Source: a virus (taxonomy: Duplodnaviria; Heunggongvirae; Uroviricota; Caudoviricetes). Taken from it: a stretch of 47,442 bases of DNA. The stretch covers positions 1 through 47,442 of the IMG/VR virus record IMGVR_UViG_2913112809_000004; one strand, 5' to 3'. This document shows, one piece after another, positions 40,801-46,800 of the stretch (the stretch's first letter is position 1; each line of letters begins with the position of its first letter). A program made the position numbers.

Positions 40801-43800
40801 AACACAATCAATGTGTTATCTTTTTTGTTGCCATAAATGTTAGTCATGACAAACAAAAACACTTGACCTAACTGTTAGCCATAGCTAATCTTGTTTGCAT
40901 CAAGACACCGCACGGTGTTCTCAGCAAACAGTTCCGCTACCCTGGCGTTAAGGGGAAATGAGGTCAACATGGATACTATCGATCTTGGCAACAGTGAATC
41001 TCTGGTATGCGGCGTATTCCCCAACCAAGACGGTACGTTCACCGCGATGACGTATACCAAAAGCAAAACGTTTAAAACCGAAACTGGCGCGCGTCGCTGG
41101 TTAGCCAGAAACACTGACTGATGAGGTTGACGATGGAATTTAAAGATTTACCAATATCAATACAGGAAATGGCCGCTGATGTGATTCGCTCGCAACTGGC
41201 GCGGAACCCAATGATATTAGTAGATAAAGTGTTCATCAGAAATTTGTCAAATCATGTCCGCAATTCTTTTACCGAACTGTATTCAGATTCGTTCACAAAC
41301 AATCATTGTGTAGAAAATAAAGCAAAGCCCATTGCAGAAACGATAACGCAAAACATCAATACGAAACAAACCGAAGAAGATATTGACCAATTTACCCGTG
41401 ATGCTGGCTTAAAATGCAGGAAAGAAAAATCGCCATATGCGGGGAACATGTTTGTTTATGACAACCTTATCAGAATTCGTGGCGAAATTCCGACTGAATA
41501 CCTGGCAAAAATTCACCAGGCATTACTTAAAAATCTGGAAACGGAAGTATTTGATGGCAACACCAACGGCTCCTTCGTGGTGTCAACTCTCGCAAAAGAG
41601 TGGGATACAGATAATCGCTGGAATGTTGCTACATGGTTATTCAGCAACAAAGCTGCTGCCCTGGAAGCTGCGGCCTGTATTTGCGACCTGCTAAGGACAG
41701 ACCGCAAATACAACCTGGATGTGTATAGCTATATTTATGCTGAACACTACCCGCTATGGATTAACTGGTAATTACAAAGCGGTGCCAGCAGGGCCACGGC
41801 GACCAGCACCACGATTGTAATCAATGATGCCATTATAAAGTGCATTGTTTAATTTATCGTCGAATGCCGATTCTGTGAGCCCTAGCTCTGAATGAGTTTT
41901 TAATAACCCTGATTGCCTGAGTTGATTAACCAGACATTCAATCTGTTTTTCAATAAGCGGATGTATTGGTCTGTTTGGCATTTTATCCTCCATTGAGGTT
42001 CTGGGTTAAAAATGGAGACCAACACGCTGCCACGTGTAGTCGTGCGCCGGACACGGATAAGAATCCGGCACTGACAGTTTACTGAAAGGATATATCCCTG
42101 AAAAGTCAGGGCACAACACGAAAGCGCACGGCGAAGTCACTTCTCCCTCTGTTGCGTGCCGCCGGCATCTTCGTCCGTGCGCTTCCGGTTGTGGCAATCC
42201 GCGAAATGGCGCGGCGGTAAGTATGGCGGGGTTATTCCTTCCCCGTTGATGACACCGGGTTGTCAGGTTGACCATACGCCTGAGTGACAACCCCGCTGCA
42301 ACAACCCATGTTAATTACCTTTTGGCGGGTATCCGTTTTTTGTTTTCCCTTGTGATACCCGCCCTTTTTAAAGTGAATTTTGTGATGCGGTGAATGCGGC
42401 TAAGCGCACGTGGAACAGTTAAAACCAAAAACAGTGTTATGGGTGGATTCTCTGTATCCGGCGTTAATTGTTAACTGGTTAACGTCACCTGGAGGCACCA
42501 GGCACCGCATCACAAAATTCATTGTTGAGGACGCGATAATGGAAACGTTATTAATCAATTCCACTACGCCTGAAACCCGTTTTGAAATTGGCGTTATAAC
42601 TGGTGATAAAACTTTTATTGAGGATGCCATTAATCAGATAAAGCGCATGCCGGATTTATTAAATAAAGTATGCATTGCTTCAAAGATGGCTCGCTTAAAC
42701 CTGATGAAAAAAGGATGCTTGCAATGAATACTGCATTTGCACTTGTTCTGACAGTTTTCCTTAATACCGGAGAGCCTGTTGACCTAGTTACAGGCGTATA
42801 CGGCTCAATGAAAGAATGCACGACCGCTGCAGACGAACAAAAAATTCCCGGTAACTGTTATCCGGTCGATAAAGTTATTCACACAGATAATAGCGAAATC
42901 CCGGCAGGGCTTTAAAACAGACCTGCAGTAAATATCCGGTTCCATTTTTATATGCCAGCAATGGCAGGGATTTGTTCACCCTTAAATCTGTAATGAGGTT
43001 AAAACAAAATGAGTAAAGTCTTTATTTGCGCCGCCATTCCGGACGAACAGGCAATAAAGGAAGACGGTGCAGTTGCTGTAGCCACTGCCATTGAAGCCGG
43101 CGACGAACGCCGCGCCCGTGCTAAATTTGCATGGCAATTCCTGGAGCAATATCCGGCTGCTCAGGACTGCGCTTATAAATTTCTTGTCTGCGAGGATAAA
43201 CCCGGCATGCCCCGCCCTGCCATTGATTCCTGGGATACCGAATATATGCAGGAAAACCGCTGGGATGAAGAGTCAGCCTCTTTTGTCCCGGTCGAACCTG
43301 AATCCGATCCTATGAACATCACTTTTGACAAGCTGTCCCTTGAAGTGCAGAACGCGGTCCTGGTTAAGTTCGGTACATGTGAAAACATCACCGTTGATAT
43401 GGTGATTAGCGCACAGGAGTTACTGCAGGAAGACATGGCAACATTCGACGGGCATATCGTTGAAGCATTAATGAAAATGCCTGAAGTTAACATCATGTAT
43501 CCGGAGATTAAGTTGTTCGCCATCGGGTGGGTTAAACATAAATGTAAGCCGGGGGCAAAATGGCCTGAGATCCAGACTGAATTACGCGCCTGGAAAAAAC
43601 GTCGCGAAGCCGAACGAAAAGAAACCGGGAAATATACTTCTGTTGTTGATCTCGCCCGCGCCAGAGTCAACCGACAGCACACTGAAAACTCAGCAGAAAA
43701 AATCCCCCCAGTCACTGCTGTCATTCGTCGCGAATACAAGCAGACATGGAAAACACTGGATGATGAACTGGCCTACGCTCTGTGGCCTGGTGACATTGAT

Positions 43801-46800
43801 GCCGGAAACATTGACGGCAGCATCCATCGCTGGGCAAAAAATGAAGTTATCGAGAACGATCGCGAAGACTGGAAGCGTATTTCCGCATCAATGCGCAAAC
43901 AGCCTGATGCCATTCACTATGACCGTCAGACTATTTTTGGCCTTGTCCGTGAGCGTCCGATCGACATTCACAAGGATCCCGTGGCACTGAACAAATACAT
44001 CACTGAATACCTGGCGACAAAGGGCGTGTTTGAGGATGAAGAAACAGACCAGAACACTGCTGATATTCTCCAGCCGTCAGCAGCACAAACTGATGCAGTG
44101 GAAACTGAAGTATCTGATACCAAAAAAAATGAAAGCGCGCTGGAAACTGAACCATCTGTAGAGCGTGAGGGGCCGTTCTACTTCCTCTTCACCGATAAGG
44201 ATGGCGAAAAATATGGTCGTGCAAACAAACTTTCTGGTCTGAATAAGGCGCTGGCTGCCGGGGCTACTGAAATCACGAAAGAAGAATATTTTGCCCGCAA
44301 AAACGGCACATACTCAGGTTCACAACAAAATACTGATGCATCTGACACGACCGCACAACCGGAACTGGTAAAAGTTACCGCTGACGAAGTAAACAAAATT
44401 ATGCAGGCAGCCAATATCAGCCAGCCTGACGCCGATGAACTGCTTGCAGTATCACGTGGTGAATTTGTTGCAGGGATTAGCGACCCGAATGATCCGAAAT
44501 GGGTGAAGGGGATTGAAACCCGCGATTCTGTGAACCAGAACCAGCAAGAATCGGAACAGAACGACCAGAAAGCGGAACAAAACAGCCCAAATGCGTTACA
44601 AAACGAGCCAGAAACGAAACAACCTGAACCAGTAGCGCAACAGGAGCCGGAAAAAGCCTGCACCGCCTGCGGTCAGACCGGCGGCGGCAACTGCCCTGAT
44701 TGTGGCGCGGTGATGGGCGACGCAACATACCAGGAAACATTCGATGACGAGAATCAGGTTGAAGTTCAGGAAGACGATCCGGAGGAAATGGAAGGCACTG
44801 AACATCCGCACAAGGAGAACACTGGCGGCGATCAGGACCACGTCAGCGATAATGAAACTGGCGAGGCGACAGATCCCTTAGTTAAGGTTAACGGTCATCA
44901 TAAAACCACATCCACCAGCGGAGGGTGCCACCACCTGATGATCGACCTTGAAACAATGGGCACAAATCCCGATGCCCCGATTATCTCAATAGGTGCAATA
45001 TTTTTCGATCCGCAAACCGGAGATATGGGACCGGAATTTAGCAAGACCATCGATCTGGATACTGCTGGCGGAGTCATTGATCTGGGCACCATTAAATGGT
45101 GGCTGAAGCAATCACGCGAAGCGCAGTCTGCCATTATGACCGATGAAATCCCGTTAGATGATGCACTGTTGCAATTGCGGGAATTTATAGATGAAAACTC
45201 CGGTGAATTTTTTGTTCAGGTCTGGGGAAATGGAGCCAACTTCGACAACGTGATTTTACGCCGTTCATACGAACGACAGGGTATCCCCTGTCCGTGGCGT
45301 TACTACAACGATCGCGATGTACGCACAATCGTTGAGCTGGGAAAAGCCATGGACTTCGATGTCAGAACGGCTATTCCGTTCGAAGGAGTACCCCACAATG
45401 CACTTGATGATGCACGTCACCAAGCAAAACAAGTTTCAGCAATCTGGCAAAAACTGATCCCTAATCAGGCTGATTTTTAATGTTCAACCGTCGCCAGTTG
45501 TAGTTGGTATTCTGCAACTGGCGCGTTCCGGAGTGATAGCCATGAGCGAACAGTACCTGATAACGCTCGACGAGTGGAAACCTAAACGGTTCAGCCTCCC
45601 AATAACAAACACTACCCTGGTGAAATACGGAAAACTTGGATACATCGTACCAAGACCACAAAAAATTCGTGGACGTTGGCTGATAGATCGCCGGGCAGTA
45701 TTTGTTGGACCTGGTGAAACGGGAATTGCGCCGGAAATTCATACTGGCGATGATGATGCACTGAAGGAGATTTTAACTCATGTCACCGAGGCCACGAAAA
45801 AACAGCACTGACGTTGCCGGTCTTTACGAAAAGTTTGATCGCAGAACTGGCAGGGTTTACTACCAGTATAAAAACCCTGTGACTGGAAAATTTCACGGGC
45901 TCGGAACAGACAAAGGCAAGGCGGAAAAAATCGCTTCCACAGCCAATCAGCGAATAGCTGCAGCAGAAGCAGAATATTTCATGCGCAAAATTGACGAAAG
46001 TCCGTCAGCAACAAAACGTCGGGGTATCAGATTAAAAGCATGGGTTGATCGGTATCTGAAAATACAGGATACACGACTGAAAAATGGGGATATTGCAGCT
46101 ACAACCCACAAAGAAAAAGCGCGAATGGCTGCATACCTGGTTTCCCGCCTGGGAAACCACCCATTGAAAGAACTGGAAGTAAGAGACTTTGCATTGATAC
46201 TGGACGAGTGGCTGGATAAAGACATGGTGAGCACAGCGAGAGTAAATCGCGGATTATGGGTTGATATTTATAAAGAAGCACAGCATGCAGGGGAAGTCCC
46301 TCCCGGATGGAATCCTCCGGAGGCTACCCGTAAACCGATCCCTAAAGTAACCAGAGCCAGGCTCACTCTGGAAGACTGGCAAAAAATTTACAACGCAACA
46401 CCTGAAAAACACTTTATCCGTAACGCAATGCTTCTTGCGATTGTTACTGGCCAGCGCCGTGATGACATATGCCACATGCGTTTTTCAGATGTGTGGAACG
46501 ATCACCTGCATATTACCCAGGGAAAAACTGGAATGCGTCTGGCGTTACCGCTTACGCTACGCTGTGATGCCATTGGGATATCGCTAAAAGAAGTGATTAA
46601 TGGATGCAGGGACAGAATATTGAGTCCATACCTGATTCATAGTCGGCACCAGAAACAACCAAAACCAATGAGTAAAGACAACCTGAGCGATTACTTTGCC
46701 AAAGCGCGGGAGCTGGCTGGAATAATTCCACCAGCAGGAAAAACACCGCCAACATTTCATGAACAACGCTCCCTGTCAGAACGGCTGTACCGCGCACAGG

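Follow-up and report, generated by a model that had tools for sequence, protein, structure and literature searches.

A RecE-like scaffold joined to a DexA-type DEDDh exonuclease domain in the intact ydfE gene of a lambdoid prophage

Introduction

T4 DexA and its Escherichia coli homologue EcD are 3′-5′ DNA exonucleases by experiment, and the stand-alone EcD cuts T4 DNA containing 5-hydroxymethylcytosine (5hmC) and shields E. coli from T4 (Kang et al., NAR 2025, PMC12153337). In Rac RecE (exonuclease VIII), the catalytic part, taken here as RecE 606-866 (PF12684), is a PD-(D/E)XK nuclease of 5′-3′ polarity. In this study, a gene related to both was analyzed in a 47,442-nucleotide stretch of viral DNA, positions 1 to 47,442 of IMG/VR record IMGVR_UViG_2913112809_000004 (hereafter, the window). 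The gene occupies positions 43009-45480 on the + strand and encodes a protein of 823 amino acids (aa) in which a RecE-like middle region is followed by a DEDDh exonuclease domain of the DexA type.

Zheng et al. (Genome Res 2025, PMC12315714) have reported on Chi-rich lambdoid phages without an anti-RecBCD gene. Table 1 of that paper contains a 'Tritos' type, which has a nuclease and lacks a single-strand annealing protein (SSAP; SAP in that source), an SSB and an anti-RecBCD gene; its text notes DnaQ-type nuclease genes near int and counts the homologue in phage Tritos as a Rec-module nuclease. The present analysis joins three items: the K-12 pseudogene ydfE, the DexA/EcD exonucleases described in 2025, and these 'nuclease-only' Chi-rich lambdoid phages.

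Domain Organization of the Protein

The open reading frame (ORF), which the initial annotation had placed at exactly these coordinates, starts with ATG and runs for 823 uninterrupted codons, with GAGG located 11 nt upstream as the ribosome-binding site. The profile of PHROG 2082, which is annotated as 'exonuclease', was covered by the product over positions 1-823 of 823. The ratio of nonsynonymous to synonymous substitution rates (dN/dS) was 0.19-0.23 for the whole gene in comparison with three equal-length homologues. Per segment, the three full-length homologues gave 0.12-0.51, with 0.14-0.51 in the middle region. With these values in all segments, the whole protein is kept by selection; the ORF is intact, and purifying selection acts on all of its modules.

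Three modules were distinguished. The N-terminal module, aa 1-255 (43009-43773, + strand), is of the YdfE type; newer Pfam families PF27430 and PF27432 (precomputed) already span the N-terminal part of the protein, and no fold could be assigned to this module. The middle module, aa 256-625 (43774-44883, + strand), is RecE-like, acidic and mostly predicted to be disordered. In the AlphaFold2 model, its predicted local distance difference test (pLDDT) values were low throughout except for a small alpha/beta element at aa 386-432, which has no counterpart in Rac RecE. The third module, aa 641-818 (44929-45462, + strand), is a DEDDh 3′-5′ exonuclease domain of the DexA/Rv2179c-like family.

The assignment of the third module is based on several lines of evidence. 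PF16473 (Rv2179c-like) matched aa 641-813 with E = 3.4e-66 and 222.8 bits against a cutoff of 27, covering profile positions 1-177 of 177. When T4 DexA and seven enterobacterial homologues of the stand-alone kind were aligned with the protein, the catalytic residues D646, E648, D746, H796 and D801 did not vary, and this pentad corresponded to D7/E9/D119/H186/D191 of DexA. The model of aa 641-818 had pLDDT values of 75-92 and an RNase H-like DnaQ fold, for which Foldseek returned T4 DexA (8kel) as the top match (E = 6e-10), with RNase T, Cap18, REXO2 and Orn next. The initial annotation had read a DEDDh exonuclease rather than a RecE-type nuclease in the C-terminal part and had proposed domain annotation and structure prediction as checks; both agreed with it, the domain search returning PF16473 and no PF12684 and the predicted structure having DexA as its best match.

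Comparison with Rac RecE

In a BLASTP comparison, aa 262-625 of the protein aligned with residues 278-591 of K-12 Rac RecE (E = 3e-61, 37% identity), and identity was very high from about aa 470 on. The stretch SRGEFVAGISDPNDPKWVKGIETRD (aa 482-506), quoted in the initial annotation as shared with RecE, is indeed identical to it at 23 of 25 residues and reads SRGEFVxGISDPNDPKWVKGIxTRD in both proteins. The hallmark motif of the family, LLAVSRGEFVAGISDPNDPKW (aa 478-498; 44440-44502, + strand), is near-identical in RecE; its core residues were present in about 28-32 of the 56 long family representatives, and the conserved core of the middle region across the family is LAxxRGEFVxGISDPNDPKW. A CxxC-x7-CxxC knuckle at aa 551-565 (44659-44703, + strand) aligned with C519-C533 of RecE. 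This putative zinc ribbon, which would bind metal, occurred in only 7-8 of the 56 representatives and was limited to E. coli RecE-like lineages.

In DNA sequence, the gene was 77% identical to recE over its nt 1425-1872 (recE nt 1365-1770). The similarity ended at codon 624, with none further downstream, and this end point lies just upstream of the start of the nuclease domain in both proteins. The domain swap proposed in the initial annotation is thus located at a defined junction, while the opposite polarity proposed with it would follow from family membership. The label of a RecE N-terminal-like protein was accurate for the middle region (aa 256-625); the true N-terminus (aa 1-255) is of the YdfE type and not RecE-like.

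Both terminal domains of RecE were missing. Pfam searches of the protein gave no match for PF12684 (RecE nuclease) or PF06630 (RecE N-terminus), in contrast to Rac RecE, for which the same kind of search was strong for both (PF06630 E = 6e-98). The NCBIfam RecE equivalog NF007259 scored 270.7 bits against a cutoff of 1269, aligning over profile positions 270-602 of 877 only, and RecE 592-866, which contains the PD-(D/E)XK part, found no match in the window by tblastn or phmmer. Both proteins are large, both come from early-left operons of lambdoid prophages, and they have in common the non-catalytic central region, the RGEFVxGISDPNDPKW motif and the four-Cys knuckle. Unlike RecE, the protein has no PF06630, no PD-(D/E)XK 5′-3′ nuclease and no adjacent recT, and its catalytic head is of a different superfamily, for which the opposite polarity is expected.

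That the gene encodes canonical exonuclease VIII, or is a decaying mosaic remnant without function, is therefore hardly credible. Many records are named exodeoxyribonuclease VIII and the K-12 copy is truncated; however, the absence of the RecE nuclease and N-terminal domains and an equivalog score far under the cutoff rule out the former identity, and the full-length ORF, the end-to-end family profile, a dN/dS of about 0.2 and the presence of the gene in viable phages speak against the latter. Domain searches and selection analysis thus refuted both.

Relationship to DexA and EcD

Identity of the exonuclease domain was 27% with DexA and 38% with an EcD-like protein of 189 aa. The latter, found with the EcD forward primer (the reverse primer matched nothing), carries the Ala at position 78 that has been reported for EcD and is probably EcD or a close variant. 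The domain belongs to the same PF16473 DEDDh subfamily as DexA and EcD and has identical catalytic residues. Unlike these enzymes, which are stand-alone proteins of about 190-230 aa, it forms the C-terminus of an 823-aa protein.

W152 and D169 of DexA are proposed 5hmC readers, and defensive HREX variants, namely 5hmC-recognizing DexA/EcD exonucleases, lack the tetramer residue D90, in place of which EcD has A78 (PMC12153337). The equivalents of W152 and D169 in the protein were Y766 and A780, in a 27% identity alignment in which positions could shift by a residue or two, and D90 was kept as D718, in contrast to A78 of EcD. Because the 5hmC-reading residues are replaced and D90 is retained, the protein, as judged from its sequence, does not meet the HREX definition.

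These relationships bear on a possible, if unlikely, role in superinfection exclusion, in which the enzyme would protect the prophage host by degrading incoming modified-base DNA like EcD or by trimming RNA-phage genomes like TONDO. The gene lies in a prophage and adjoins dicB, whose expression confers phage resistance. EcD protects E. coli against T4 by 3′-5′ digestion of 5hmC DNA (PMC12153337), and the 38% identity to the EcD-like protein fits such a role; likewise, prophage DEDDh exonucleases with auxiliary domains ('TONDO') defend against MS2 and Qbeta (preprint PMC13344964). However, the replacement of the proposed 5hmC readers and the retention of D90 argue against an EcD-like activity, and TONDOs come from another DEDDh clade, are ISG20-like and are under 500 aa (preprint PMC13344964). 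PADLOC gave only a weak generic DEDDh match for the protein (21.8 bits), and the gene belongs to a repressor-controlled operon on the lytic early-left side, which is probably silent in the lysogen.

That the protein is an exoribonuclease which, like Rv2179c, attacks the 3′ ends of host or phage RNA during induction is very unlikely. PF16473 is named for a 3′-5′ exoribonuclease, RefSeq calls homologues 'exonuclease', '3′-5′ exonuclease' or, often, '3′-5′ exoribonuclease', and RNase T, Orn and REXO2 are among the structural neighbors. RNase T and Orn cut DNA too, and their place among the neighbors is therefore uninformative on substrate. By contrast, the nearest characterized relatives by both sequence and fold, DexA and EcD, are DNA exonucleases, and the scaffold is derived from an enzyme of double-stranded DNA ends. 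Because these relatives and the scaffold deal with DNA, DNA is the more plausible substrate.

Identity with ydfE and Distribution

The N-terminal module (aa 1-255) shared 87% identity with YdfE, encoded by the K-12 Qin pseudogene ydfE (b1577), which is cut by IS2 after codon 256. The window gene is therefore intact ydfE, and K-12 has neither the RecE-like nor the exonuclease part because of the IS2 insertion. The reported absence of a DexA homologue from K-12 (PMC12153337) fits this truncation. Intact orthologues, including WP_112015955.1 and those of phages Tritos and mEp460 and of PPompW prophages, share the gene position (dicB-ydfD-ydfE-xis-int) and the length of 823 aa, with 89-94% DNA identity to the window gene; K-12 differs in retaining only a fragment.

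Copies of the gene were found in 3538 of 5426 complete E. coli genomes, about two thirds (megablast, at least 80% of the gene covered, 80-94% identity), and DNA identity of the window copy to any complete E. coli genome searched did not exceed 93.9%. In the homologous-protein search, almost all matches were near-identical, partial E. coli entries. The novelty implied by the initial annotation was not confirmed: the gene is intact ydfE, its product is matched end to end by PHROG 2082, it is present in about two thirds of the genomes searched, and its class was catalogued in 2025 (PMC12315714). The gene family and its domain content are thus already known from public annotation and recent literature, and specialists in phage mosaicism would not be surprised. 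Literature searches found nothing joining ydfE to an exonuclease, Rv2179c to a prophage, or exodeoxyribonuclease VIII to dicB.

Phage records often use 'exodeoxyribonuclease VIII' or 'exonuclease VIII, ds DNA exonuclease' for homologues, a label contradicted by the domain content. The present assignment corrects this widespread mis-annotation of a gene that lacks both the RecE nuclease and a RecT partner. One of the related loci, on contig JAGZPX010000007.1 (L010), is labelled as a Veillonella parvula metagenome-assembled genome and contains an Escherichia-type prophage region with 89% protein identity and a RecE-type N-terminus; a binning error probably underlies the species label of this public record.

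Module Exchange in the Family

A sensitive search with the middle region (aa 255-640) against 1.84 billion representative proteins recovered only 147 clusters. Pfam counts for the 56 long representatives were 32 with PF06630, 17 with the RecE nuclease, 11 with the DEDDh domain and 1 with RecT. Per-protein mapping showed that the RecE-type N-terminus was combined with the PD-(D/E)XK head in eight proteins and with the DEDDh head in seven, and the YdfE-type N-terminus with the two heads in three and two proteins, respectively. Representatives with both N-terminal types had a PD-(D/E)XK head in one case and a DEDDh head in two; those with neither type had a PD-(D/E)XK head in five cases and a DEDDh head in none. 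Because RecE-type and YdfE-type N-termini each carry either nuclease head, the swap is recurrent. Relatives have one of two N-terminal types before the RecE-like middle and one of at least three C-terminal types after it, and the swap is real.

Neither nuclease was present in 28 of the 56 representatives, and 11 of these share a third C-terminal tail of roughly 150-380 aa, mostly about 300 (carriers include P0296, P0297, P0307, P0314, P0329, P0338, P0340, P0361 and P0374, with tails of about 290-380 aa). The tail corresponds to the C-terminal part of phrog_2489, which is annotated as 'exonuclease', and contains the motif KKSLTDAxKKALSxLGFxADV. In seven of eight sequences its best Pfam match was Rad52_Rad22, in all cases sub-threshold (best E = 0.003), and a profile search of the PDB gave no match. 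As a lead only, the tail may represent an annealase fusion mis-annotated as a nuclease. Its carriers may also be the 'RecE-2' proteins of Zheng et al., which that text presents as lacking a nuclease fold (PMC12315714). In addition, in one representative of 703 aa (P0285) the RecE nuclease is deleted, and the RecE N-terminus and middle continue in frame into most of RecT.

This diversity suggests a wider, rather improbable interpretation, in which the RecE/YdfE scaffold would serve generally as an adaptor, delivering exchangeable DNA-end enzymes to a single cellular target via RGEFVxGISDPNDPKW. The heads would then be a PD-(D/E)XK 5′-3′ exonuclease, a DEDDh 3′-5′ exonuclease and possibly a Rad52-like annealase, with the DEDDh version being the phage's contribution to RecBCD/Chi-dependent concatemer formation; for example, blunting of 3′-tailed ends would let RecBCD load in SSAP-less, Chi-rich phages. 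The long, dispensable N-terminal part of RecE may likewise have its purpose in such modular use of the scaffold.

Operon Context

The exonuclease gene closes a dicBF-type operon on the + strand; it is int-proximal and lies directly before xis and int. The order is a DicA/CI-type repressor, DUF1391 (ydfA-like), a 216-aa ORF, the DicF slot, dicB, ydfD and the exonuclease gene. The repressor (40395-40802; PF01381, PF07022) heads the early-left operon in the place occupied by dicA in Qin. DicA in Qin represses its operon in a stable lysogen.

The dicB homologue (62 aa; 42539-42727) was assigned by phrog_1251 and by similarity to K-12 dicB. It is joined by an ATGA overlap to the ydfD homologue (DUF1482, PF07358; 63 aa; 42724-42915), which lies immediately upstream of the exonuclease gene; a DUF1482 gene lay upstream of the exonuclease gene in 83 of 91 related loci. 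Downstream are the excisionase gene (xis; 45533-45811; PF07825), whose product is 100% identical to that of phage vB_EcoS-640R1, and a lambda-type integrase gene marking the prophage end (45780-46898; PF09003, PF00589), all on the + strand. The order dicB-ydfD-exonuclease-xis-int was also found in a chromosome of an E. coli that makes Shiga toxin (STEC) and in phages mEp460, Tritos and vB_EcoS-640R1, and it is kept in truncated form in K-12 Qin.

The DicF slot (42266-42408, + strand) was located by blastn of the K-12 and Tritos dicF regions: the flanks are conserved and the 53-nt core is replaced. The replacing sequence (42303-42358, + strand) is unrelated and has a 10-bp GC-rich hairpin with a T run at its end, GGCGGGTATC...GATACCCGCC CTTTTT; a promoter/terminator scan placed a terminator-like site at 42324-42337, and an Rfam scan did not recognize DicF in the slot. 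The sequence may be an alternative small RNA in the DicF slot. Between the ydfA-like gene and the DicF slot, positions 41121-41993 hold the 216-aa ORF (41121-41771; phrog_2151, function unknown) and a convergent 73-aa ORF (phrog_4274). Pfam gave nothing above threshold for the former, and both ORFs are absent from Qin, Tritos and mEp460.

Recombination Partners and Chi Sites

Searches by tblastn and phmmer with RecT, lambda Bet, Exo, Gam and both RecE ends gave no match anywhere in the window. A Pfam/PHROG scan of ORFs of at least 110 aa between 25 and 47 kb revealed no SSAP, SSB or Gam/Abc2, with Erf, Sak4 and Abc2 not used as direct queries. In this respect, the scan found only two genes, both in the nin region, encoding a YbcO nuclease (32733-33026, − strand) and a NinB/Orf-like recombination mediator (33023-33502, − strand). 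Likewise, 91 related loci with flanks of up to 7 kb contained no RecT, Bet, Exo, Gam, RecE nuclease or Rad52-like tail. The statement in the initial annotation that no RecT/Bet-like partner lies nearby therefore applies to the window and to all of these loci.

The window contained 11 Chi sites (GCTGGTGG) versus 1.33 expected from shuffles (maximum 5), in a 10:1 orientation. The strand of the late genes (−) holds ten, at 7396, 17904, 18567, 21660, 23437, 24316, 29382, 29987, 44912 and 46728; the remaining site is at 29639 on the + strand. For the class of Zheng et al., the text specifies at least four co-oriented sites, usually at least eight (PMC12315714). With many co-oriented Chi and no early-left SAP, SSB or anti-RecBCD gene found, the window agrees with the Tritos type on both counts. 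Tritos and the window phage are alike in lacking an SAP and an anti-RecBCD gene and in having many co-oriented Chi, and the Tritos nuclease is a full-length homologue of the window gene, 89.6% identical. In its main text, the paper of Zheng et al. lists the type in a table and neither describes the RecE-scaffold/DEDDh chimerism of this protein nor tests its function (PMC12315714). As no Rec module was found and Chi is abundant, the phage probably relies on host RecBCD and RecA.

The alternative that the protein supplies the nuclease of a non-canonical recombination module, acting with an unrecognized annealase (e.g., the 216-aa ORF at 41121-41771) or with host RecA via 5′ overhangs or gap processing, appears doubtful. 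It draws on the scaffold common with RecE, a genuine recombination exonuclease, on the weak Rad52-family tail that the scaffold bears in relatives (seven of eight, best E = 0.003) and the single fusion to RecT, on the NinB/Orf-like mediator, and on the Rec-module classification of the Tritos homologue in the text of Zheng et al. (PMC12315714). Against this, neither the window nor the 91 loci yielded an SSAP, and the 216-aa ORF has no Pfam family above threshold, belongs to a PHROG of unknown function and is missing from Tritos, mEp460 and Qin. Furthermore, 3′-5′ polarity would remove the 3′ tails needed by annealases and RecA, and the gene adjoins int rather than occupying the canonical mid-operon Rec position (PMC12315714). 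The description of the product as a recombination-module protein in the initial annotation is doubtful for the last operon gene, near int, of an SSAP-less, Chi-rich phage.

Proposed Function

We favor the interpretation, with a likelihood just above even, that the product of the window gene is a tethered 3′-5′ DNA exonuclease of the early-left operon that processes or degrades DNA ends in lytic development. The DEDDh head would most likely be a Mg2+-dependent 3′-5′ exonuclease, by analogy with DexA and EcD, and would act on DNA 3′ ends (single-stranded DNA or 3′ tails). It would be borne by a non-catalytic scaffold composed of the YdfE-type N-terminal domain and the long, acidic, mostly disordered RecE-homologous region, the equivalent of which in Rac RecE bears the 5′-3′ PD-(D/E)XK nuclease; such a protein would have arisen by the module exchange common in this small family. 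Upon prophage derepression, the gene would be transcribed with dicB and ydfD from the DicA-type-repressed operon, and the exonuclease would work without a phage SSAP. The scaffold may tether the exonuclease to a host or DNA-end target, where it would trim 3′ tails or ends, either tidying them for RecBCD loading or degrading unprotected DNA. Unlike that of RecE, its role would not be the generation of 3′ tails for annealing.

Several points weigh against this interpretation. Tethering by the scaffold is a conjecture, considering that the N-terminal fold is unassigned and the middle is mostly predicted to be disordered. The namesake of the domain family, Rv2179c, is an exoribonuclease, which makes RNA a possible substrate. 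A 3′-5′ exonuclease usually antagonizes recombination (PMC12315714), and a role in favor of RecBCD is speculative for this reason. Finally, the timing of expression is itself deduced, because in a stable lysogen repression of the operon would be expected. STEC prophages are among the carriers of the gene, and its function bears on the handling of DNA ends by SSAP-less temperate phages.

Other Features of the Prophage

Two tRNA genes (31713-31863, − strand) are located upstream of a Q-like antiterminator gene. Within the minus-strand early-right region, positions 34455-36958 contain three + strand ORFs whose function is unknown (phrog_12777, phrog_11490 and phrog_9664) and which form an island adjoined by a sok-like antitoxin RNA (Rfam RF01794, 97 bits). 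The island looks like a moron or defense insertion; PADLOC gave no significant match for it.

Positions 25426-27337 (− strand), between the toxin operon described below and the small terminase subunit, hold a TET-associated glycosyltransferase-like gene (PF20691, E = 7.5e-36) that overlaps with a gene for a ParB_N-domain protein. The two could act together in DNA modification, and this would matter for a DexA-like nuclease that might discriminate modified DNA. No TET/JBP dioxygenase was found, and the link to DNA hypermodification was set aside because of this.

A type II heat-labile enterotoxin (LT-II) operon is located just downstream of the lysis genes (27411-28629, − strand). It encodes the A subunit (27769-28629, − strand; PF01375, E = 4e-119) and the B subunit (27411-27791, − strand; PF06453 LT-IIB, E = 3e-57), and its presence identifies the window as an LT-II-converting lambdoid prophage.

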